Assembly (NCBI GenBank): GCA_016218545.1
Contig: JACRDQ010000040.1
Location: forward strand, 18,436 to 82,435
DNA: 64,000 nucleotides
Origin: Elusimicrobiota bacterium
GTDB lineage: Bacteria; Elusimicrobiota; Elusimicrobia; UBA1565; UBA9628
Reading direction: 5' to 3'
Position 1 is the stretch's first letter; each line of letters opens with the position of its first letter. Below, piece after piece: positions 2-11,937 of this stretch. Below the pieces are notes generated by a model. The model was not told the DNA's origin. It made no database searches and saw only the letters and a list, made by a program, of their open reading frames with translations. Position numbers and translations under genes: made by a program.

Positions 2-628
2 GTCCTCCTCGTCAACGCCAAGGCGGACCGCACGGACATCGACAAGTACGTGGGCAAGTGGCTCAGGAACCGGGTCAAGCCGGACAGCCGTGTGGTGGTG
101 TACTTCGCCGGCCACGGCGCTCCCAACCCGCAGACCGGGGAAGGCTACATCCTGCCCTACAGCGGAGACCCCGCCTACACCGAGGAGACCGCCTATCCGG
201 TGAGGAAGCTCTACGAGGCCCTGTCCTCCCTGCCTGCGGCCGAGGTCACGGTCGTGCTCGACGCCTGCTTCTCGGGCCGCGGCGACCGCTCGGTCCTGGC
301 CAAGGGAGCGAGGCCGCTCGTCAACGTCAAGGCCGCTGACGCGGGCTCGAACACCGTGGTCCTCTCGGCCGCGGGCGCGGACCAGATCTCGACCCTCCAC
401 CCTGAGGCCGAGCACGGGATGCTGACCTACTTCCTGCTCAAGGCCCTGCGCGGCGAGGCGGACAAGGACCGGGACGGCCGGGTGACCACCAGGGAGATCT
501 ACGACTTCGTCCTGCCCTCGGTGGAGCGCGAGGCCCGCAAGCTCAACGTGGACCAGACCCCGAGCCTGAGTCCGGCCCCGGGCGCCCTGGGCAAGAAGGC
601 TGAATCGGTCTGGATCCGTCTGAAGTAG
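2..628 (+). CDS. Caspase-like (peptidase C14) domain protein, 5' end outside window
   Basis: The frame of track ORF 50..628 stays open to the window edge (upstream codons VLLVNAKADRTDIDKY contain no stop). YFAGHG and VLDACFSG match the His/Cys catalytic dyad context of caspase/metacaspase-fold peptidases. Confidence 0.7.
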   Translation, partial: VLLVNAKADRTDIDKYVGKWLRNRVKPDSRVVVYFAGHGAPNPQTGEGYILPYSGDPAYTEETAYPVRKLYEALSSLPAAEVTVVLDACFSGRGDRSVLAKGARPLVNVKAADAGSNTVVLSAAGADQISTLHPEAEHGMLTYFLLKALRGEADKDRDGRVTTREIYDFVLPSVEREARKLNVDQTPSLSPAPGALGKKAESVWIRLK

Positions 629-640
629 GCTGCCTGCGGC

Positions 641-2149
641 CTATTTGAGGCCGTAGATGAGGACTCCCTCGGCCTCATCGCGGTGCGCGAGGTCGAAGGC
701 GCCTCCTGCGCCGGCATAGCCCACGAGCCGGTCATAGAACCAGCGCGTGGGGTCCGACACGCCCTTGGCCGCCGGGATGAAGCCCGCGTCCCTGATGACG
801 AGCCAGCGGAAGCCCTCGGCGCGGAATCTTTCCGCGAACTCCTCCGGACCGTTGGAAGGGATGAAGAGGCGCCCTTTGAGGCCCGTGAAGTAGTGGATGC
901 GGATCATGTCCATGGACACGATCCGGTCCTCAGGCGAGGCATGCGCCTTGAGCCAGTCGTAGGAGGCATGGGCCACGGTCAGGGGCTGGGCCAAGGAGGT
1001 CCGCACGGTGCGGGCCAGGAGCGGCGCATTGGTCGCCACGGCCAGGAGCGCGGCAGCGGCCAAGGCCCGGCCGAAGAACCGTTCGGGGACCAGGGCGCGG
1101 AGGCCTTCCAGGCACAGGAAGACGAAGGCCGGCAGCATGGGGACCACGTAGCGCGGGGCCTGGTAGACGTAAGCTGCGCAGACCACGAAATGGCCCATGG
1201 CGTAGAGGGCCAGGAACCGGTGGAGGCTGGAACCTCTGTTCCGCCACGTCCCGGCCGCGAAGAGGACGGCTCCTGCGGCCATGAAGGCCTTGGCCAGCAG
1301 ACCTGTGGGAGCGGCCAGGGTCGGCAGGTAGACCGCGGTCAGGCAGGTCAGGCCCTTGAGATAGAGGCGGCTGTTGTCGAGCAAGCCCGATAGGGCGGCC
1401 GCGGCCCCCCCCTGGCTGCGGAGGCTCCAGTAGGGGGCGTAGAAGGAGGCTTGCCCGATGTGGGTCGCGAGGTAGAGGGTGAAGGGAAGGACGACCAGGC
1501 CGGCGCACAGTCCGAACCACAACCCCTCCTTGAGCTTGCGTCGGAGCGCCAGCTCCGCGAGGATGGCGAGGGGCAGCACGAGCCCGATGGAGCGCAGGAG
1601 CACGATGAACCCGGCCAACCCGCCGAGCAGGGCCCAGCGCCACGGCCGGTCGGACTCCAGCCATGACCTCTCGAAGAGGAGGAAGACCGTCAAGCCCAGG
1701 ATGAAGACATAGCCCGGCTCAGCCATGATGTTGCCGCTGAAGGTCAGCAGGAAGTCGCACAGGAACAGGACGGCTGCGTAGGCCGGGAGCTGGGAGCCTT
1801 CGAACCGGCTCCGCGTGGACAGGTAGAAGAAGGCCAGGCCCGAGAAGAAGAGGGCGGCCATGAAGAGCTTGAGCATGAGCACGGGCCTCTCGAACGCGGC
1901 CAGGAAAGGCATGAGCAGGGCCGGCACGCCCCAGTTGAGGGAGACCTCGAGCTGCGGCGGGTGGTGCCACGGCCTAAGGAGCGAGCCCTTCAGCGCCCCT
2001 TCGCTGAAGAGAAGCCAGTTCATGTCGTCGACGTACTGGCCGAATGGGACCGCGTTGCAGGAGAGCAGGTAGAGCGCGAGGAGAGCCGCGGCCCCGGCCA
2101 GGTCCCAGGCGCTCAGCCGGCGTCGGGCTCCTCCGGCGGCCGGCGTCAT
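641..2149 (-). CDS. Polytopic membrane protein, GT-C fold (family 39/ArnT/PMT-like) glycosyltransferase candidate
   Basis: 502-aa ORF with many hydrophobic helices, an acidic early loop (YVDDMNW) and a soluble C-terminal domain. Only a 3-nt gap separates it from the upstream GT2 gene. Family assignment is by architecture only. Confidence 0.55.
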   Translation of the reverse strand: MTPAAGGARRRLSAWDLAGAAALLALYLLSCNAVPFGQYVDDMNWLLFSEGALKGSLLRPWHHPPQLEVSLNWGVPALLMPFLAAFERPVLMLKLFMAALFFSGLAFFYLSTRSRFEGSQLPAYAAVLFLCDFLLTFSGNIMAEPGYVFILGLTVFLLFERSWLESDRPWRWALLGGLAGFIVLLRSIGLVLPLAILAELALRRKLKEGLWFGLCAGLVVLPFTLYLATHIGQASFYAPYWSLRSQGGAAAALSGLLDNSRLYLKGLTCLTAVYLPTLAAPTGLLAKAFMAAGAVLFAAGTWRNRGSSLHRFLALYAMGHFVVCAAYVYQAPRYVVPMLPAFVFLCLEGLRALVPERFFGRALAAAALLAVATNAPLLARTVRTSLAQPLTVAHASYDWLKAHASPEDRIVSMDMIRIHYFTGLKGRLFIPSNGPEEFAERFRAEGFRWLVIRDAGFIPAAKGVSDPTRWFYDRLVGYAGAGGAFDLAHRDEAEGVLIYGLK

Positions 2150-2152
2150 CCC

Positions 2153-3163
2153 TCAGGACGCCTTGCGTTCCCTGGCGATGAGGGGGTCGATGAGGCGGTA
2201 GACGGCCTTGGCGTCCTCGTCGGCCCACAGGGGATGGTGCCTGGCCATGAGCCAGAGCTTGCGGCCGGCCTTGGCCAGGCCCAGGGCCGGGGCCGGGAGG
2301 AAGGTCTTCCGGTAGAGGGTCGAGGACCTCGCCTTGTCCCCGAGCTCCTTGAGCATGAACGCCCGGGCCTCCGCGGGCTGGAGGCTGCGCAGGAGGTAGT
2401 TCGCCACCTCGTAGACGAGCTTCTCCTTCTCCACCGCCAGGACGTCGGGCGGGGTGCCGCCCGCGACCAGGGCCTCGACCGCCTCCGGGTACTCCTCGAT
2501 CCACTTGTGCGTGACTTGGCCCTCGTGGATGCGGCGCACGGCCAGGGGCTTGCGGATGATCCCGACCTCCACGCCGTCGGCCAGCATGCGGGCGTAGAGC
2601 TCGTTGTCGAGGATGACCATGTCCTTGCGGTAGTGGCCGTACTTCTCGTAGTGGGCGCGCGGGATGGCGAGGTTGGTGGTCAGGTAAGGCAGGAACTCCT
2701 CGCCGACCGCGTAGTGGCCCGGGACCCTGCCCTCGGCGATGGGCCGGGCGGGGTCGAAGGCCATGCCGATGATGCGGCCGTAGCGGTGGAGGTAGCCGTT
2801 GGAGAAGAGGAAGCCCACCCGGGGCTTGGCCTTGATGTAGTCCGCGAACGCCCGCAGCCTTTCCGGCAGCCAGAAATCGTCGGAGTCGATGTTCGTCACC
2901 CAGAGCCCGCGGGCCATGCCCAACGCCAGGTTGCGGCAGTACATGTTCCCGATGTTCTTGGGGAGGCGGTGGTACTTGACGCGCGGGTCCTTGGTCCAGG
3001 CCGTGATCATCTGCGGCGTGTCGTCGGTCGAGCCGTCGTCCACGATGAGGACCTCGAAGTCCTGGAAGGTCTGGCTCATCACCGTGGTCAGGGCGCCGCC
3101 GATCATGTGGCCGCGGTTGTAGGTCGGGAGGATGATGGAGAAGAACGGGGGACCGATCGTCAT
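2153..3163 (-). CDS. Family 2 glycosyltransferase (GT-A fold)
   Basis: Track ORF 2153..3703 trimmed to the ATG at 3163 (MTIGPPFFSIILPTYNRG...). The 180 upstream codons are Pro/Arg-rich noise overlapping the rSAM gene. IILPTYNR, VDDGSTDDT and DSDD are classic GT2 motifs. Confidence 0.85.
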   Translation of the reverse strand: MTIGPPFFSIILPTYNRGHMIGGALTTVMSQTFQDFEVLIVDDGSTDDTPQMITAWTKDPRVKYHRLPKNIGNMYCRNLALGMARGLWVTNIDSDDFWLPERLRAFADYIKAKPRVGFLFSNGYLHRYGRIIGMAFDPARPIAEGRVPGHYAVGEEFLPYLTTNLAIPRAHYEKYGHYRKDMVILDNELYARMLADGVEVGIIRKPLAVRRIHEGQVTHKWIEEYPEAVEALVAGGTPPDVLAVEKEKLVYEVANYLLRSLQPAEARAFMLKELGDKARSSTLYRKTFLPAPALGLAKAGRKLWLMARHHPLWADEDAKAVYRLIDPLIARERKAS

Positions 3164-3180: not shown

Positions 3181-4581
3181 TCAGGCCCGGCGTCTCGACC
3201 TTAGGCTGCGCCCCACGGAGAGGCGGACCTCGGCCAGCATGCGGGCGTGACGGTCGCAGCCCGAGAAGCGGGCCGGATGAGCGTAGTGTCCCGGGCACCC
3301 TCCTTGGCACGCGGAGAAGAGGCGGCAGGTCCGGCAGGCGGGGTTGTCCCTGAGGCGGTGGCCCACCCGTGCTCGAGCGATCCTGTTCCAGGCGGCCAGG
3401 AAGGAGGAGGGGCCGCAGTCTGAGGCCGCGAACTCCGTGAGGCGGCGGCCGAAGGCCTTGCCGAAGATGGAGCAGAAGGAGAGGCCGGCCTCGTCGATAG
3501 TGAGCAGGCCGAGGTGGTGGAGGCAGACAGGGCTGGAGAGGTCCTTCTGGACCTCGTCGGCCTCGGCCGGCCTGCGGAAGACCTGGTTGATCTCGAAGAC
3601 GGAGTAGGCCTTGGGCCTGGAGCGCGCCCGGCTGATGAGGGCCAGGCTCATGGCCCGAACCCCGTCTTGGTCGAGCGCGAGAGGGTCCTTGCCGCCGGAC
3701 CATCTGCCGGCCGCCACGGGGAGCTCCACGGCCCAGTGCCGGATCCCGGACTCAGCCAGGCGGTCGAAGAGCTCTGCCTCGCGGCCGAGCCAGCCGCGGT
3801 GCATCATGCTCACCACCGTGACCGGGACCCCTGCCTTGACCAAGCGGCTGATGTTGCGCATGGAGGCGTCGAAGGCCCCCTTCCTGCCCCGCAGGCTGTC
3901 GTGCGCTTCAGCCGGGCCGTCGACGCTCACCTGCACGAACCTGGCGTAGGCCGGGTGGGAGGCGAAGAGCTCGCGGATGACGGACACGTCGCCTGCGGCG
4001 TTGGAGTTGATGGAGAAGGGCAGGCAGTGCTCGGCCAGGGCCGCGGCCGTGCGCCTGAGCAGGGACGGCCTCAAGGTCGCCTCCCCTCCGGAGAGGCGCA
4101 CTCCCTCGACTCCGACGGCGTGGAGGTTCCGCGCCGTGGCCAGGGCCGAGGCCTCGGTGAAGGGCCGCCTTCGGGCTTGGCCGCCGAGGTAGCAGTGCTT
4201 GCAGGAGAGGTCGCAGACCGAGACCAGGTGCCAGACGCAGACGCGGCAGGCTGCCGCGAGCCCCGGGGTCTCTACGACCTGGCGCGGGTCCGAGGGGTTC
4301 GGCTCTGCGGCGACCTCGACGAGCTCGCGGAGCGCGGGGTCGGACGCGAGCTCCCGGGCCAGGCGCCGGGGCGAGGCTGAGGCGTCGAGGAGGTCCGGGA
4401 AGCGCGCCTGGAGGGCGGGGAAGTCCGAGCGGCCGTCGCAGGCTTTGAGGAACTCGAAGGAGTCGTCCTCGAGCTCAAAGACGCGGCCAGCCGGACCGAC
4501 CGCGACGCGGTCAGAGGGCTGGCCGTAGAAGGCGGCAAGGCGTCGCCGGAGGATGACGCCGTCGCGCAGTCTTGGGAACAA
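3181..4581 (-). CDS. Radical SAM/SPASM-domain enzyme with N-terminal PqqD/RRE-like domain (peptide-modifying maturase candidate)
   Basis: CDLSCKHC is a CxxxCxxC radical SAM cluster motif. The C-terminal Cys cluster CRTCRLFSACQGGCPG is SPASM-like. The N-terminal ~90 aa (PRLRDGVILRR...FELEDDSFEFLKACDGRSDF) resemble PqqD. The start is a TTG directly after the stop of the small ORF. Confidence 0.85.
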   Translation of the reverse strand: MFPRLRDGVILRRRLAAFYGQPSDRVAVGPAGRVFELEDDSFEFLKACDGRSDFPALQARFPDLLDASASPRRLARELASDPALRELVEVAAEPNPSDPRQVVETPGLAAACRVCVWHLVSVCDLSCKHCYLGGQARRRPFTEASALATARNLHAVGVEGVRLSGGEATLRPSLLRRTAAALAEHCLPFSINSNAAGDVSVIRELFASHPAYARFVQVSVDGPAEAHDSLRGRKGAFDASMRNISRLVKAGVPVTVVSMMHRGWLGREAELFDRLAESGIRHWAVELPVAAGRWSGGKDPLALDQDGVRAMSLALISRARSRPKAYSVFEINQVFRRPAEADEVQKDLSSPVCLHHLGLLTIDEAGLSFCSIFGKAFGRRLTEFAASDCGPSSFLAAWNRIARARVGHRLRDNPACRTCRLFSACQGGCPGHYAHPARFSGCDRHARMLAEVRLSVGRSLRSRRRA

Positions 4582-4665
4582 CTAGGAACTGTAGCCCGGG
4601 AAGGCGCAAAGGCTCGTCTTGCGGACCGGCCGCGCCGCGCGGATCTTCTTGATGAGCTTCTTCAT
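4582..4665 (-). CDS. Unlisted 27-aa ORF MKKLIKKIRAARPVRKTSLCAFPGYSS, candidate precursor peptide for the adjacent rSAM/SPASM enzyme
   Basis: ATG at 4665 with GAGAGG 6 nt upstream. 24 of 26 sense codons end in G/C. The TAG stop is immediately followed by the TTG start of the rSAM gene. There is no homology evidence. Confidence 0.45.
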   Translation of the reverse strand: MKKLIKKIRAARPVRKTSLCAFPGYSS

Positions 4666-4698
4666 TTCGTGCCTCTCGTTTGCGGCTTTGACCCGTCC

Positions 4699-4704
4699 AT
4701 TGTA
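4699..4704 (-). promoter_or_regulatory. TACAAT -10-like box upstream of the small ORF / rSAM operon
   Basis: The minus strand reads GGTACAATGG about 33 nt upstream of the 27-codon ORF ATG. No convincing -35 element. Confidence 0.25.
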
Positions 4705-4861
4705 CCGCATCCCGCCTCCCGGGCGCCACGGTCTTTGGGCCCAGGAGGGCCTGGGCCCCGACGGCTGCGGAGCCGTTTCCCGCGCCAGGGCCGAGCGTCA
4801 TCATGCTATCATTACCCGGTCGCCATGCTCGCCAGAGACTGGCGCGGGAAAGGAGGTCCTC

Positions 4862-5439
4862 ATGAGGGACAAGGTTTCTCGACTTCTCGCGGTCTTGTGC
4901 CTGAGCCTGCTCGCCGCCGGCTGCGCCACGCCCAAGGGAGTGACCGTCCAGGACAGGAGGAGCTATGTCCTGAAGATGAAGGACGAGACCCTGGCCAGGC
5001 TTCATAAGGAGAAGCCGGAGACCCGGGACATGGTCAAGAGGGCCTCCGGTTACGCGGTCTTCAGCAACATCGGCACGCACCTCTTCCTCCTCGCGAGCGG
5101 CAACGGCTACGGCGTCGTGATCGACAACGCCACGGGACGGAAGGTCTTCATGAAGATGCGCTCGGTGGGGTTCGGCCTGGGGATGGGAGTCAAGGACTTC
5201 AGGGCCGTCTTCATCTTCAAGAGCAAGTCGGTGGTGAAGGATTTCATCGAGAAAGGGTGGGCGTTCGGGGGGCAGGCCGACGCCGCGGCCAAGTCCGGAG
5301 AGAAGGGCGGCGCCGCCGGCGGGGAGGCCTATGTCGAGGACGACATCGAGATCTATCAGCTCACGGAGTCTGGTCTGGCCCTGCAGGCGACGGTCGCCGG
5401 CACCAAGTACTGGCCCGACAAGAGTCTGAACGCGGGACC

Positions 5440-5443
<4 letters not shown>
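4862..5443 (+). CDS. Lipoprotein with SYLF/Ysc84-like (DUF500) domain
   Basis: Track ORF 4619..5443 trimmed to the ATG at 4862, which is preceded by AGGAGG. Lipobox LLAAGC. The Gly-rich body (GNGYGVV...GFGLGMG...GGQADAAA) is typical of SYLF domains. Confidence 0.75.
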
Positions 5444-7506
<2,063 letters not shown>

Positions 7507-7513
7507 CGGCGCC

Positions 7514-9010
7514 GTGAACCGCGGACGCGGCGGCTCGCCGGCGGGCCTGCTGGCGGCGCTGGCGGCCGCGGCGGTGCTCCTGGGCTACCGCCTCGACGAC
7601 GTAGCCGGACTGCACCGGGACGAGGCCGCCTTCGGGCTCGCGGCCGAGGCCATCCTGAGGGGCGAGCTCCGGCCGCTGGCCGGACTGCTCAGCACCTACG
7701 CCGCGCCGCTGCACTCCTACGGCATCGCCCTCTTCTTCCGTCTTTTCGGCGAGTCGCTCTGGAGCTTGCGGGCCGGCGGCGTCCTGGCGAACCTCTTGGC
7801 CGCGGCCCTTTACGCGGACCTGGCCCGGCGCTTCCTAGCCGGCCGGGCGGCCTGGGCCGCGTGGTTCCTCGTCACCATGCCCTCGTTCGTGGTCCTGGGG
7901 CGCATCGCGGGCGAGAACTACGCCCTCAACCCGCTGCTCTTCATGGGAGGCGTCTGGCTCTTCGCCGTGCCGGGCCTCCGGGGTACCGGCCGGGCGCAGG
8001 CCGCGGGCTTGCTGGCCGGCGGGCTGTGCTTGGGGCTCGCGGTCTGGAACCATATCGTGAGCCTGCCCAGCGTGCTCGCGGCCGCGGCCGCCTACGCCGT
8101 CTTCGTCCGTCCGGGCCGGCCGTTCCTCGTCCGCTCCGCCGCCCTGCTCCTGCCCGGCGCGCTCCTGGCCGCGGCGGCCGCGGCCGCGGCCCTGGTCTCG
8201 GCCCCGGCGCTCAACAGCGGCGCGTCCATGCTCTCCAACCTCTCCCCGGCCGTGCTGCCCTCGCTGCTCAACATGCTGCACACCCTGGGAGGCGGCGCGC
8301 TCTACGCCCGCGCGTGCGGCGAGGCGGCGCTGCCGCTCACCTTCATCCTGCCCGTCGCGCTGGCCGCGGGCCTCATCGCGCCCTGGCGCCGGAGCGTCCC
8401 GGAGGGTGAGCGCGGCCTGGGCAAGGGGCTCTCCGCCTTCGTGGCCGCGAGCTTCCTCGGGACCTGCCTCATCACGCCCGCGGGCATGACCGGGTCGCGG
8501 CTCTGGATCATCCCCCTGCTCGCCGTCCCCGCGGTCCTGGCCCTGGCCCTGCCGCGGCGGAGCCTGACGGCCGCGTTCCTGGGAGGAGGCCTCGTCGCGG
8601 TGAACCTGGCCGGGCTGGGGTGGGACTATTTCCACAACTTCCTGGAGGACGGCGGGGTGCCCCGCCGGGCGGTTTTCGTGGGAGGGGGCTTCGACAACAG
8701 TTGGGACTTCATGGACCTGCGGCCTTTGGCCGCGACAGCGGTCAAGAGGCCTGGGACGCCGGTCTTCGTGGAGGACTTCAACCTCTGGCGCCTGAGGTTC
8801 CTCCTCCCGCCTGATCAGAGAGAGCGGGCCCGGCTCCTCACGCCCGAGGTCCTGGACCGGGGAGCGGCGCCGGCGGGAAGCCTGTTCGCCTTCCTGAACC
8901 TGGAGGACCGCCTCCTGCCGCCGCTCATCAGGACCCGGCGCCTCAATCTCGTCCGGCGGCCCGAGCTCTCGTCCCGCCAATTCAGCGTCTACGAAGAGAC
9001 CGGGCCGTGA
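7514..9010 (+). CDS. GT-C fold (family 39/ArnT/PMT_2-like) membrane glycosyltransferase candidate
   Basis: 498-aa polytopic ORF with a GTG start. An early DE-containing loop (GLHRDEAAFGL) is followed by many helices and a soluble C-terminal part. Confidence 0.6.
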   Translation: MNRGRGGSPAGLLAALAAAAVLLGYRLDDVAGLHRDEAAFGLAAEAILRGELRPLAGLLSTYAAPLHSYGIALFFRLFGESLWSLRAGGVLANLLAAALYADLARRFLAGRAAWAAWFLVTMPSFVVLGRIAGENYALNPLLFMGGVWLFAVPGLRGTGRAQAAGLLAGGLCLGLAVWNHIVSLPSVLAAAAAYAVFVRPGRPFLVRSAALLLPGALLAAAAAAAALVSAPALNSGASMLSNLSPAVLPSLLNMLHTLGGGALYARACGEAALPLTFILPVALAAGLIAPWRRSVPEGERGLGKGLSAFVAASFLGTCLITPAGMTGSRLWIIPLLAVPAVLALALPRRSLTAAFLGGGLVAVNLAGLGWDYFHNFLEDGGVPRRAVFVGGGFDNSWDFMDLRPLAATAVKRPGTPVFVEDFNLWRLRFLLPPDQRERARLLTPEVLDRGAAPAGSLFAFLNLEDRLLPPLIRTRRLNLVRRPELSSRQFSVYEETGP

Positions 9011-9633
9011 GCCTTCCTGTTTTAAGGCCTTCTGCCGAAAACTTGATAGAATCTGGCCTCAGCGCCATGCCAGTCCCCCGCTCCTGCGCCGTGTTCCTCG
9101 ATCGCGACGGCGTCCTCATCGAGGACGTGGATTATGTCCGAAGCATGCGGCAGGTCCACGTGGTGCCCGGGGCTCCCGAGGCCGTGGCCAGGCTCAACAA
9201 GGCGGGCCTGAGGGTCGTGGTGGTCAGCAACCAGTCCGGCGTCGCCAGGGGCTATTTCTCCCTGCGGACCCTACAGAGGATCAACGCCGCGCTCAAGAGG
9301 AGGCTCCGCGAGGCCGGGGCCAGGCTCGACGGCCTCTACTATTGTCCGCACCTTCCCCCGGCCAAGGGGAGGAAGCCCTGCGGCTGCCGCAAGCCCGGGA
9401 CCGGGCTCGTGGAGCGCGCCCGCCGCAGGTGGGGCATCGACCTTTCCCGGTCGTTCTTCGTCGGGGATTCGACCACGGACCTTCAGACCGCGCGCAACGC
9501 GGGCTGCAAGGCGGTCCTCGTGCGCACGGGCAAGGCGGGCAAGGACGGCAGGTACAGGGTGCGGCCGGACGCGGCCTGCCCGGACCTGCCCAAAGCCGTG
9601 GATTGGATCCTGGGGGTGCTGCATGGGTCTTAG
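9007..9633 (+). CDS. gmhB: D-glycero-D-manno-heptose 1,7-bisphosphate phosphatase (HAD-IIIA)
   Basis: FLDRDGVL, VVVSNQSG, CPH..........CGCRKP zinc-loop pattern, and FFVGDSTTD. The GTG at 9007 overlaps the previous stop. An alternative start is the ATG at 9067. Confidence 0.85.
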   Translation: MSLPVLRPSAENLIESGLSAMPVPRSCAVFLDRDGVLIEDVDYVRSMRQVHVVPGAPEAVARLNKAGLRVVVVSNQSGVARGYFSLRTLQRINAALKRRLREAGARLDGLYYCPHLPPAKGRKPCGCRKPGTGLVERARRRWGIDLSRSFFVGDSTTDLQTARNAGCKAVLVRTGKAGKDGRYRVRPDAACPDLPKAVDWILGVLHGS

Positions 9634-10360
9634 GGCGGCCATCGTGGCGGGCGGAAGGGGAGAGCGCATGCGGCCGGCCACGGACGCGACGCCCAAGCCC
9701 ATGCTCCCGCTCCTGGGCAAGCCCCTCCTGGAGCACCAGCTCGGCTGGCTCAAGCGCTCGGGGATCGACGACGTCTTCCTCTGCCTGGGCTACAAGGCCG
9801 AGGCCGTCCAGGAGCACTTCGGGGACGGCTCCAGGTGGGGCATGAAGCTGCGCTACTCCGTCGAGTCCTCGCCGCGCGGCACGGCCGGCGCGGTCAAGGA
9901 CCTGGGAGACCGCGGAGGCGCGGACCTCCTCGTGGTCTACGGGGACCTCTTCATCTCCATGGACGTCGGCAGGCTCGCGGCCTTCCACGCGTCCAAGCCC
10001 GGAGCCGCGACCCTCGTGGTCTGGGACACCGACCACCCCCAGGACTCCGACCTGGCCGAGGTCACGGACGGCCGGGTCACCCGGTTCTACCGGGCCGGGC
10101 CGGGCGAGCCGGCCGGCGGCTTGGCGCTCGCCGCGGTCTGGCTCGTGCGGCCTTCCCTGCTCGAGCTCGTCCCCGCGGACCGGCCCTCGGACTTCGGCAG
10201 GGACGTCTTCCCCGCGGCGCTCAAGGCGGGGCTGGTCCTCAACGCCTATAAGACCGGCGAGACGGTCGAGGACGTGGGCACGTTCGAGAGGATGGAGAGG
10301 TTCACGAGGAAGTGGGAGCGGCGGATGGGCGGAGGAGGCAGGCAGCATGATCATCTCTAG
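9623..10360 (+). CDS. hddC: Sugar-1-phosphate nucleotidylyltransferase, likely heptose-1-phosphate guanylyltransferase
   Basis: AAIVAGGRGERMRP....PKPMLPL.GKPLLEH is an NTP-transferase signature. It lies between gmhB and hddA with overlapping ends. The symbol is inferred from context. Confidence 0.7.
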   Translation: MGLRAAIVAGGRGERMRPATDATPKPMLPLLGKPLLEHQLGWLKRSGIDDVFLCLGYKAEAVQEHFGDGSRWGMKLRYSVESSPRGTAGAVKDLGDRGGADLLVVYGDLFISMDVGRLAAFHASKPGAATLVVWDTDHPQDSDLAEVTDGRVTRFYRAGPGEPAGGLALAAVWLVRPSLLELVPADRPSDFGRDVFPAALKAGLVLNAYKTGETVEDVGTFERMERFTRKWERRMGGGGRQHDHL

Positions 10361-11318
10361 GACCCCTTTCCGCATCAGCTTCGCCGGGGGCGGGACGGAC
10401 CTGGCCGCCTTCTATCAACGCACGCCCGGGGCCGTGGTGTCTTCGGCCATCAACAAGTACATGTACGTGACGGTCAACCGCTACTTCGAGGACAAGATCA
10501 TCCTCAAGTACTCCAGGACCGAGCTGGTCTCGAGGCTCGCGGACGTGCGCCATCCCATCCTCCGGGCGTGCCTGCGCAAGACGGGCCTCACGCGCGGCAT
10601 CGAGATCACCTCCATGGCCGACGTGGTGGGCGGGACGGGCCTGGGGTCGTCCTCGAGCTTCACCGTGGGCGTCCTGCACGCCCTCCACGCCTACAAGAGC
10701 GAGTTCATGACGGCCGAGGAGCTCGCCCGCGAGGCGTGCGAGATCGAGATCGAGCGCCTCAAGGAGCCCATCGGCAAGCAGGACCAGTACATCGCGGCCT
10801 ACGGAGGCGCCCAGTTCACGGAGTTCATGTCCGACGGCAGGGTGCGGGTCGATCCCCTGATCTGCCCGGTGGGCGTGCTCGAGGAGCTGCGCGCGAGGCT
10901 CATCCTGCTCTACACGGGCATCCGGCGCAAGGCGGGCCCCATCCTCAGGCGCGCCCGGGCCGAGTTCGACCGCAACGAGGCCGTGCTCGACCGGATGCGG
11001 ACCTTGGCCGACGAGACCCGCCACGAGCTGCAGGCCGGCCGGGTGGATTCCGTGGGCCCCATCCTGCACGAGGGCTGGGAGCTCAAGAAGTCCTTGGCGC
11101 ACGGCATCACGAGCTCGGACATCGACGACGCCTACCGGACCGCCCTGCGGCAGGGTGCCACGGGCGGCAAGATCGTGGGCGCGGGGGGAGGGGGCTTCCT
11201 CCTTCTCTTCTGCCCGCACCGCAAGCGCTCCCGCGTGACGTCGGCCCTCAGGGGCTGGCGGGAGATACCGTTCGACTTCGAACCCGAGGGGTCCAAGATC
11301 ATCTATGTCAGCAAGTAA
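10347..11318 (+). CDS. hddA: D-glycero-alpha-D-manno-heptose 7-phosphate kinase (GHMP family)
   Basis: The N-terminus RTPFRISFAGGGTD and the GHMP motif GGTGLGSSSSF, plus KQDQY and GAGGGGFLL, match the HddA-type architecture. Confidence 0.85.
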   Translation: MIISRTPFRISFAGGGTDLAAFYQRTPGAVVSSAINKYMYVTVNRYFEDKIILKYSRTELVSRLADVRHPILRACLRKTGLTRGIEITSMADVVGGTGLGSSSSFTVGVLHALHAYKSEFMTAEELAREACEIEIERLKEPIGKQDQYIAAYGGAQFTEFMSDGRVRVDPLICPVGVLEELRARLILLYTGIRRKAGPILRRARAEFDRNEAVLDRMRTLADETRHELQAGRVDSVGPILHEGWELKKSLAHGITSSDIDDAYRTALRQGATGGKIVGAGGGGFLLLFCPHRKRSRVTSALRGWREIPFDFEPEGSKIIYVSK

Positions 11319-11937
11319 GATCAAGCCGACACGTCCGGGCTGTTTCCACAGCGTCGGGCCGGGGAACCTCGAGCCCGCGGATTTCGCCCGGTGGTACCGC
11401 GGGGCCTGCGCGAGCGCGTGGGACGGGGTGGACCTCAAGACCCTCGCGGCCGTGGCCCGGGAGCTCCTCAGGGTGCGCGACCGCGGCCGCAAGGTCCTGG
11501 TCATGGGCAACGGCGGTTCCGCGGCCATCGCCTCCCACATCGCGGTGGACCTCTCCAAGACCGCCCGGGTGCCGGGGCGACCCCTCATCAGGGCCGTGGC
11601 CCTGACCGACAACGTGGAGTTCCTCACCGCGGTCGCCAACGACAAGTCCTTCGACGACATCTTCGTGGCCAAGATGGAGGCCCTGCTCGAGCCCGGAGAC
11701 CTCGCCATCCTCATCAGCGGCTCGGGCAACTCGCGCAACCTTCTCAAGGCGGCCCGCTACGCCAAGAACAGGGGCGCGCGCACCGTGGCCCTGCTCGGGT
11801 TCGAGGGCGGAGCGCTCAAGAGGCTGGTGGACCTCCACCTCATCGTGCCCTCGGACCAATACGGGGTCATCGAGGAGCTCCACATGCGCGTGGGCCACAT
11901 CCTGACGTTCTACGTCAGGCAGCTCGGGAAGGGCTGA
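11305..11937 (+). CDS. gmhA: Phosphoheptose isomerase (SIS domain)
   Basis: VLVMGNGGSAAIASH, ILISGSGNS.N and EELH match the GmhA/SIS pattern. It is the last gene of the heptose operon. Confidence 0.85.
   Translation: MSASKIKPTRPGCFHSVGPGNLEPADFARWYRGACASAWDGVDLKTLAAVARELLRVRDRGRKVLVMGNGGSAAIASHIAVDLSKTARVPGRPLIRAVALTDNVEFLTAVANDKSFDDIFVAKMEALLEPGDLAILISGSGNSRNLLKAARYAKNRGARTVALLGFEGGALKRLVDLHLIVPSDQYGVIEELHMRVGHILTFYVRQLGKG

Follow-up and report, generated by a model that had tools for sequence, protein, structure and literature searches.

Among the described systems in which radical S-adenosylmethionine (SAM) enzymes act on peptides, mycofactocin is a precedent for a family 2 glycosyltransferase (GT2) acting on a peptide-derived product made by such an enzyme, and SkfB, which belongs to the sporulation killing factor system, is a synthase of Cys-to-C-alpha thioethers. 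In streptide, the enzyme StrB/SuiB makes a cross-link between the beta-carbon of Lys and C7 of Trp in a K-x3-W segment (PMC9389541). Here we consider a 27-codon open reading frame (ORF) and the gene that it adjoins, which encodes a radical SAM/SPASM enzyme, in a stretch of 64,000 nucleotides of an Elusimicrobiota bacterium (GenBank assembly GCA_016218545.1, contig JACRDQ010000040.1, positions 18,436 to 82,435 of the forward strand; hereafter "the window"). From sequence comparison and structural models, we consider that the two genes form a precursor-maturase pair for a ribosomally synthesised and post-translationally modified peptide (RiPP), with a probability of roughly 85%. The first-pass annotation of this DNA had already proposed a hidden precursor of a radical SAM/SPASM maturase with a fused RiPP recognition element (RRE), and this core reading is well supported by the conservation of the ORF in all the orthologous lineages described below.

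The type of cassette is known, namely a radical SAM/SPASM RiPP system with a fused RRE, and both its precursor family and its enzyme subfamily are unnamed. The literature that we searched contains no description of an equivalent precursor or enzyme subfamily, and the protein database entries of the family members carry no specific name. Searches of Pfam and NCBIfam with the window peptide and six related peptides gave no match at E<=10, in agreement with the earlier remark that the peptide fits no precursor family that could be named.

The elements of the cassette in the window are as follows.

4582..4665, minus strand: putative precursor peptide gene, 27 codons followed by TAG, translated as MKKLIKKIRAARPVRKTSLCAFPGYSS (direct reading)
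3181..4581, minus strand: predicted RRE-radical SAM-SPASM peptide maturase of 466 aa, TTG start (Pfam, AlphaFold 2 (AF2), Foldseek)
4672..4677, minus strand: Shine-Dalgarno-like GAGAGG, 6 nt before the peptide ATG (direct reading)
4699..4704, minus strand: putative -10 box TACAAT, 33 nt before the peptide ATG (direct reading)
4737..4758, strand unassigned: inverted repeat GGGCCCAGG-cccT-CCTGGGCCC, directly upstream of the -35 region (direct reading)

The small gene and its conservation

The ATG of the small ORF lies at 4665..4663 and its TAG at 4584..4582 on the minus strand, as read directly. The window has a GC content of 63-72%, and 25 of the 27 sense codons of the ORF have G or C in third position (24 of 26 without the ATG), the exceptions being CTT and AGT; Lys and Arg account for eight of residues 1-16. 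The TAG directly abuts, with zero gap, the TTG (4581) of the 466-aa enzyme ORF, and in the window the two ORFs share one reading frame with only this TAG between them, a junction that suggests translational coupling in this genome. The coordinates and translation of the ORF, the abutment of stop and start, the GAGAGG and TACAAT elements, the G/C-ending codons and the count of basic residues had all been given in the first-pass annotation and hold on re-reading.

Using the orthologous loci, we compared five distinct lineages of Elusimicrobia, represented by the window and by the loci L001/L008, L002/L003, L004/L007 and L005/L006/L014. A small ORF directly upstream of the enzyme gene was found in all five (5/5), which is the test that had been set for the proposed precursor. 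The orthologous peptides are MKKLLKKIRASRPVRKTSLCAFPGYSY in L001, MKKLIKRIHTARKVRKTSACAFPFMR in L002, MKKLLKGIRAARQVRKTSLCAFPGGTGE in L004 and MKKLLKRIRTARPVRKTSLCAFPGTGF in L005, and the protein database holds the additional variants P0161 (..MNKLLKKIRTARQVRKTSLCAFPGYAY) and P0162. Over the first 23 codons, 16 of 23 residues are invariant, 10 of these 16 by way of differing synonymous codons; the variable nucleotide columns number 7, 5 and 14 at codon positions 1, 2 and 3, and, of 14 informative pairs, 13 show more synonymous than non-synonymous codon differences. The peptides are 78-91% identical (first 23 residues, calculated from the codon differences), as against 56-69% for the enzymes. 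When the five loci were aligned over 391 nt, 44 of the 63 invariant columns fell inside the 84-nt ORF, and its start, stop and frame are retained in all lineages. By these comparisons, the 27-codon ORF is a genuine gene under selection at the protein level. It was missed by standard annotation, its 84 nt being under the limits of common gene callers.

Started from an ATG that lies upstream at 4710 in the same frame, the ORF would encode 42 aa and read through the TACAAT box, and this longer version is present, as a product of a gene caller, in a public collection (protein P0160). The relatives have only the M(K/N)KL start in common, and this start also carries the Shine-Dalgarno sequence. The N-terminal extensions of P0161 and P0162 are unrelated to that of P0160, and the conserved start is therefore the methionine of MKKL.

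Upstream of this start, a GAGG-type Shine-Dalgarno sequence occupies the equivalent place in L001, L002 and L004, and the TACAAT of the window aligns with TATCAT (L001), TATAAT (L002) and TATAAT (L004). These same three loci have TTGCCG-like -35 hexamers, the -35 partner being weak in the window. A scan with the strict sigma-70 consensus found no promoter in the window itself, and the sole terminator-like match of that scan, antisense to the peptide ORF and within its limits, was disregarded. An element resembling the inverted repeat at 4737..4758 aligns in L001, L004 and L005, and this repeat is a candidate operator. The intergenic stretch 4582..4858 is flanked by divergent genes, that for a SYLF-domain lipoprotein starting from about 4859 on the plus strand, and the peptide and enzyme genes constitute a self-contained two-gene cassette with its own putative promoter. 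In the L005/L006 lineage, a -10-like TAAGAT lies 6 nt before the peptide ATG and the Shine-Dalgarno sequence is absent (L005:600-630), an arrangement whose sequence suggests a leaderless mRNA.

The subfamily is rare. A word-indexed protein search, run with the single enzyme sequence and with an alignment, identified only five proteins close to the enzyme (56-69% identical), each from an Elusimicrobia metagenome-assembled genome; a genome scan gave three loci, one of them additional to the protein search; and a degenerate DNA pattern encoding VRKTSxCAFP, run against metagenomes, gave 19 matches, one real and 18 due to chance, the latter falling inside other frames or ORFs. The subfamily thus has very few members, all from uncultured Elusimicrobia of groundwater, a phylum in which, to our knowledge, almost no natural products have been characterised.

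The enzyme

Within the 466-aa enzyme, the following regions were located.

4192..4215, minus strand: radical SAM cluster motif CDLSCKHC, C123-x3-C127-x2-C130, invariant in 18 family members
3256..3525, minus strand: SPASM-type cysteines C353, C370, C416, C419, C425, C429 and C442 (alignment)
4297..4581, minus strand: putative N-terminal PqqD-like RRE domain, residues 1 to about 95 (profile and fold)

Pfam recognises Radical_SAM (PF04055, 1.8e-16) and Fer4_12 in the enzyme and nothing else. NCBIfam listed 59 radical SAM families, every one far under its cutoff, the best scores being those of nif11-class maturase 3 (87 bits, cutoff 725), SkfB (TIGR04403, 67.3 bits, cutoff 300) and MftC (TIGR03962, 55.9 bits, cutoff 265). 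The enzyme is outside every curated NCBIfam family. Both cysteine regions named in the first-pass annotation, the CxxxCxxC motif (CDLSCKHC) and the C-terminal cluster CRTCRLFSACQGGCPG, are present. The seven C-terminal cysteines, spaced as C-x12-G-x3-C ... C-x2-C-x5-C-x3-C ... C, do not vary among 18 sequences with identity down to 20%, and Foldseek gives SuiB, CteB and anSME, all SPASM enzymes, as fold matches.

An AF2 model of the full enzyme, built on an alignment of its relatives, has a predicted local distance difference test score (pLDDT) of 93 and a predicted template-modelling score of 0.92, and its first strand begins at residue 2. Among solved structures, the best Foldseek matches of this model were SkfB (E 2e-17), then CteB, then SuiB, the last with a template-modelling score (TM) of 0.63 over 488 columns and three domains. 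By sequence, the closest solved relatives are SkfB (E 3e-20) and, second, PqqE (E 5e-11), this match covering the catalytic core only. As modelled, the enzyme is built of the same three domains as the RiPP maturases SuiB, CteB and SkfB.

The N-terminal domain is predicted to consist of strands at residues 2-5, 10-15, 25-28 and 34-36 followed by helices at 39-47, 54-60, 71-80 and 82-87. A profile of 15 such domains compared with 177,635 PDB sequences had PqqD (5sxy) as its best match, with an E value of 1.2e-3. The domain modelled in isolation by AF2 reached a pLDDT of 93.7, and a Foldseek search of this model against 350,542 chains had as its two best matches the lasso peptide RREs TbiB1 (5v1v) and B1 (6jx3), with probabilities of 0.89 and 0.85 and TM of 0.47-0.55; both structures were solved with leader peptides bound. 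These lines are singly weak and jointly concordant, and we accept the domain as a predicted PqqD-like RRE.

The peptide motif in the wider family

Within the subfamily, the conserved block of the peptide runs from M1 to P23. We distinguish a proposed leader of about residues 1-16, an invariant segment T17-S18-x-C20-A21-F22-P23 and a variable tail at residues 24-27; the tails, that is the last three to five residues, differ both in length and in sequence (GYSS, GYSY, FMR, GGTGE and GTGF). Cys20 is invariant in the seven subfamily peptides (7/7). The peptide had been described as bipartite, and the basic N-terminus stands; the conserved part also spans T17-P23, and the GYSS that had been included in the second part belongs to the variable tail.

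A wider family of enzymes surfaced only in an exhaustive profile search, which gave 19,087 hits, and not in the word-indexed search. Loci were fetched for its full-length enzymes, which are 25-41% identical to each other, and a short peptide gene was found beside the enzyme in six of the seven distant loci.

L028: peptide MKRRIKKVKKIVKTSQGGWPSN, upstream of the enzyme gene
L030: peptide ..IRQTSQGGWPSS.. / ..EPIRQTSQGGWPSSVRP.., 55 aa, upstream of the enzyme gene
L032: peptide MKKEVQKTSTSQGGWGS.. / MKKEVQKTSTSQGGWGSG.., downstream of the enzyme operon
L033: peptide ..KTRTSQGGWPAD.. / ..PKTRTSQGGWPADDG.., 66 aa, abutting the enzyme gene
L035: peptide MTKKTKTITFGGW, 13 aa, upstream of the enzyme gene
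L038: peptide MHTLSSASTVAGW, 13 aa, upstream of the enzyme gene

The codons for the hexapeptide TSQGGW differ between loci that span 36-63% GC and have enzymes only 34-41% identical to one another. When the distant and subfamily peptides are aligned, T17/S18 is invariant and the aromatic residue falls in a single column, giving a family-wide motif [S/T][S/T]-x-x-[G/A]-[W/F], to which the Cys of the window peptide does not belong. Cys is missing from all six distant-relative peptides, which retain the aromatic residue and Ser or Thr at -4 and -5. From comparison with the distant relatives, the chemistry probably takes place within a motif of six residues. A remoter relative of the enzyme, P0017 (E 4e-32), is encoded in L036:4813-6470, where a 62-aa gene without the TS-x3-aromatic motif abuts its start; this gene is presumably a different type of precursor.

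Proposed function and chemistry

In the proposed pair, the basic leader (roughly residues 1-16 of the peptide) would dock on the PqqD-like recognition domain, and the radical SAM site with the two predicted auxiliary SPASM clusters would abstract a hydrogen within T17-S18-L-C20-A21-F22-P23, after which a cross-link would be formed inside this same invariant segment. As the distant relatives keep [S/T][S/T]-x-x-[G/A]-[W/F] without Cys, the chemistry is most likely on the aromatic ring; of the two options left open by the first-pass annotation, thioether or aromatic cross-linking, it is thus the aromatic one that is favoured. The chemistry shared by the family would join the aromatic ring (F22 here, Trp in the relatives) to the residue four positions upstream (S18). 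The small residue that directly precedes the aromatic one is part of a streptide-like spacing, and because this spacing resembles that of K-x3-W and SuiB is the best full-length fold, a Ser/Thr(-4)-to-aromatic (i/i+4) cross-link is the form that we favour, as a tentative assignment drawn by analogy and with low confidence.

The main chemical rival keeps the same pair of genes and places a thioether of the sactipeptide or ranthipeptide type on Cys20, as a specialisation of the subfamily. It would account for the invariance of Cys20 in all seven subfamily peptides, and the Cys-to-C-alpha thioether synthase SkfB is the best relative of the enzyme by both sequence and fold, CteB being also among the top fold matches. 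It is these two facts, the invariant Cys20 and the closeness of SkfB by sequence, that prevent the aromatic cross-link from being the sole reading. On the other hand, the six distant-relative peptides dispense with Cys while keeping the aromatic motif, the score against the SkfB family is 67 bits for a cutoff of 300, and the window peptide has one Cys only. We regard a thioether as possible and somewhat doubtful.

Several further observations weigh against the precursor-maturase interpretation or limit what can be drawn from it. Scores against the NCBIfam maturase families are all far below cutoff, and the chemistry therefore cannot be transferred by homology. The Pfam SPASM hidden Markov model (HMM) has no match in the C-terminal 139 aa, and the Pfam PqqD HMM none in the N-terminal 110 aa, even at E<=10, and the Foldseek matches of the isolated domain are statistically weak (E about 0.08, TM about 0.5); the PqqD/RRE-like N-terminus suggested in the first-pass annotation is thus upheld by the profile search of the PDB and by the fold, and not by the Pfam model. 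The known subfamily peptides are seven, all from uncultured Elusimicrobia. Lastly, neither a protease nor an exporter is conserved beside the cassette in the orthologous loci, and the product may be intracellular or processed by unlinked genes.

Other readings of the small ORF

The ORF could be a regulatory leader peptide, that is an upstream ORF which acts by attenuation or translational coupling and is not a substrate, and its product is indeed short enough for the ribosomal exit tunnel. In L001, L002 and L004, a 13-bp GC hairpin and a U-rich stretch lie between the ORF and the enzyme gene, with two compensatory pairs, although a stem-loop following the precursor gene is common in RiPP operons and this hairpin is absent from the window and from L005/L006. 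A regulatory role also agrees poorly with L032, where the motif peptide is encoded downstream of the enzyme operon, and with peptide lengths that range from 13 to 66 aa across the family around a constant short internal motif; nor does it explain why the enzyme would have a peptide-recognition domain and the fold of a peptide maturase. We consider it highly improbable. The hairpins are situated at L001:5926-5975, L002:6001-6045 and L004:273-318, between the peptide stop and the conserved enzyme start, and their translation corresponds to the 'M(T/K)P(P/R)RPxGRGG' N-termini of database proteins. Both the window and L005 have lost this segment entirely by deletion, and in them the stop of the peptide gene is adjacent to, or overlaps, the start of the enzyme gene.

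Since both ORFs of the window are in the same frame with only a TAG between them, the small ORF might also be the severed N-terminus of the enzyme, resulting from a nonsense mutation or a sequencing error, or be read through to give a peptide-enzyme fusion, and gene callers have in fact assigned longer N-termini to the orthologues P0003, P0004 and P0006. These long N-termini are, however, the translated hairpin in P0004 and P0006 and an overlap with the peptide gene in another frame in P0003. A stop, TAG or TAA, follows the peptide in every lineage; from the coordinates, the enzyme is in another frame than the peptide in L001, L004 and L005; and the first strand of the AF2 model, at residue 2, implies that the enzyme N-terminus is complete. 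Read-through or a pseudogene was rejected, given that the frame identity of peptide and enzyme is not conserved across lineages, and a severed N-terminus is scarcely credible. The position of the ORF in a divergent intergenic region, beside conserved promoter-like sequence, could finally suggest a chance frame within a conserved non-coding promoter or an RNA element of the 5' untranslated region. Against this stand the bias of substitutions to the third codon position, many of them synonymous, the preservation of start, stop and frame in all lineages, the lack of any Rfam match in 4400..5000 and the fact that genomes of 33-63% GC encode the same peptide motif by nucleotide sequences unrelated to each other. 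The codon evidence and the recoding of the motif across genomes effectively rule out a chance ORF or RNA element, to which we attach a negligible probability.

Tryptophan-tRNA ligase genes beside the distant relatives

A gene for tryptophan-tRNA ligase (TrpRS, gene TrpS) flanks the cassette of Trp-containing peptide (TSQGGW or ..GGW) and radical SAM enzyme in six of the seven distant loci, in three arrangements (L028:4831-8001, L030:558-4172, L031:1-2254, L032:1024-5925, L035:115-2757 and L038:3000-6503). Five of the six TrpS genes score over the TIGR00233 cutoff, and the partial gene of L031 was assigned through the Pfam family of its relatives and a reading of its C-terminus. L032 carries two TrpS genes in tandem; L028, L030 and L032 each have a GNAT gene after the enzyme gene, the three being mutually homologous; and L030 and L032 also encode an AAA_33/PSTK-like kinase. 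A tblastn search of the window and of the subfamily loci for these partners (TrpS, GNAT and kinase) gave no match.

The linkage to TrpS may reflect self-resistance to a Trp-derived product. Linkage to TrpRS is unusual for radical SAM RiPPs and might open the way to a novel mode of action. A more far-reaching proposal, which we consider unlikely as a whole, is that the family founds a new RiPP class in which a Ser/Thr and the aromatic residue at +4 ([S/T]-x3-[W/F]) are joined by an enzyme of this RRE-radical SAM-SPASM type, that the Trp product of the wider family is tied to TrpRS and that the Phe-type cassette of the window is a stripped-down offshoot. If this were true, the product of the wider family could be, for example, a peptide-borne TrpRS inhibitor or a Trp antimetabolite, the extra TrpS, the GNAT and the small kinase serving for self-protection.

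The glycosyltransferase neighbourhood

Two further genes follow the enzyme gene on the same strand of the window.

2153..3163, minus strand: GT2 glycosyltransferase, 17 nt after the enzyme gene (Pfam Glycos_transf_2, 1.3e-28)
641..2149, minus strand: polytopic membrane protein of 502 aa, family unassigned, 3 nt after the GT2 gene (direct reading)

The GT2 identity and the same-strand gaps of 17 nt and 3 nt are as first annotated, and the GT2 gene is probably co-transcribed with the enzyme gene in the window. The best NCBIfam matches of the GT2 are TuaG/WcaA-like, all under cutoff. The 502-aa protein had been labelled a GT-C membrane glycosyltransferase, a label that we could not confirm: the protein has no Pfam or NCBIfam match at E<=10 and no similarity to the PMT_2 protein encoded at 7514..9010.

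Homologues of the GT2 and of the 502-aa protein around the cassette were found in L001 only. Synteny between this locus and the window extends across the entire region (GlgX 78%, GT2 86%, radical SAM enzyme 70%), so that L001 provides no independent evidence for a link with glycosyltransferases. Unrelated genes in convergent orientation come after the cassette in L002, L004/L007 and L005, where the 3-6 kb downstream of the enzyme gene contain no homologue of the GT2 or of the membrane protein; homology search found none in L006 either. From this distribution, the GT2 and the membrane protein are probably lineage-specific neighbours and not conserved partners, and the glycosyltransferase link, put forward in the first-pass annotation as a property of the system, is limited to the window and its syntenic counterpart; the operon structure is real in the window, and a functional link is not supported. 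Glycosylation of the peptide product by the GT2, or a role of this product, together with the membrane protein, in a dedicated step of envelope glycosylation in the manner of mycofactocin, would agree with the co-directional order of the radical SAM, GT2 and membrane-protein genes and their short gaps, and with the same order in L001. The non-independence of that locus and the absence of both homologues around the cassette in the other lineages speak against it, as do the resemblance of the GT2 to polysaccharide GT2s (TuaG/WcaA) and its score of 38 bits for MftF (TIGR03965) against a cutoff of 280, and we hold such a role to be very unlikely.

Positions 5257-11937 of the window carry genes on the plus strand that point away from the cassette, first a GlgX/isoamylase-like gene and then the PMT_2 (GT-C) gene at 7514..9010. 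The ORFs at 9007..11318 match, by order only, the genes for a HAD phosphatase, a nucleotidyltransferase and a GHMP kinase in L001, and an additional ORF lies at 11305..11937. These genes look like a neighbourhood devoted to sugar nucleotides and envelope glycosylation, which may explain the context of the GT2. Past the syntenic block, L001:9889-13356 encodes two TldD/PmbA peptidases, a PglD-like acetyltransferase and a second radical SAM/SPASM enzyme; the window diverges from L001 there and has a different ORF at 50..628.

Comparison with known systems

Mycofactocin (MftA/MftB/MftC with MftF) has in common with this locus a short peptide, an RRE and a radical SAM-SPASM enzyme and, in the window, a GT2 right after the enzyme. 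By contrast, the enzyme scores 55.9 bits against the MftC cutoff of 265 and the GT2 likewise falls short of MftF, the peptide ends in ...PGYSS (variable) and not in GVY, neither MftD nor MftE is present, and the GT2 is absent from most orthologous loci. The likeness to the pyrroloquinoline quinone (PQQ) system (PqqA/PqqD/PqqE) lies in the N-terminal domain, which is nearest to PqqD, in PqqE as second solved relative, in the peptide gene coming first and in a compact cassette without exporter, compatible with a small molecule derived from a peptide; here, however, the RRE is fused, the peptide lacks E-x3-Y and no PqqB, PqqC or PqqF genes lie nearby.

The two-gene ranthipeptide cassettes of SCIFF and CteB are likewise minimal pairs without a conserved protease or transporter, and the fold match to CteB includes the N-terminal RRE, but SCIFF peptides have six Cys, the window peptide has one, and there is no membership of a common sequence family. 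SkfB and its peptide SkfA offer the closest solved sequence relative, the best characterised NCBIfam neighbour after nif11-class maturase 3 and, in the one invariant Cys, a possible thioether donor; the differences are the score of 67.3 bits against 300 (TIGR04403), the conservation of the Cys in the close subfamily only and the absence of the skf immunity and export genes.

Streptide (StrA; StrB/SuiB/AgaB) differs from the present system in that the partner of the aromatic residue is here Ser/Thr and not Lys, with Phe as the aromatic residue in the window and Trp in the distant relatives only, and the peptides do not belong to the KxxxW family, the window having S-L-C-A-F and the relatives S-Q-G-G-W, with no Lys. 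The identity to SuiB is about 15% (14-16%), so that the match is at the level of fold only, and the cassette, from Elusimicrobia and not Streptococcus, has neither a StrC-type peptidase/exporter nor Rgg/SHP quorum-sensing control. With streptide it nevertheless shares a three-domain maturase for which SuiB is the best full-length fold by TM (0.63 over 488 columns), a short precursor encoded directly beside the enzyme and a conserved partner four positions before a conserved aromatic residue.

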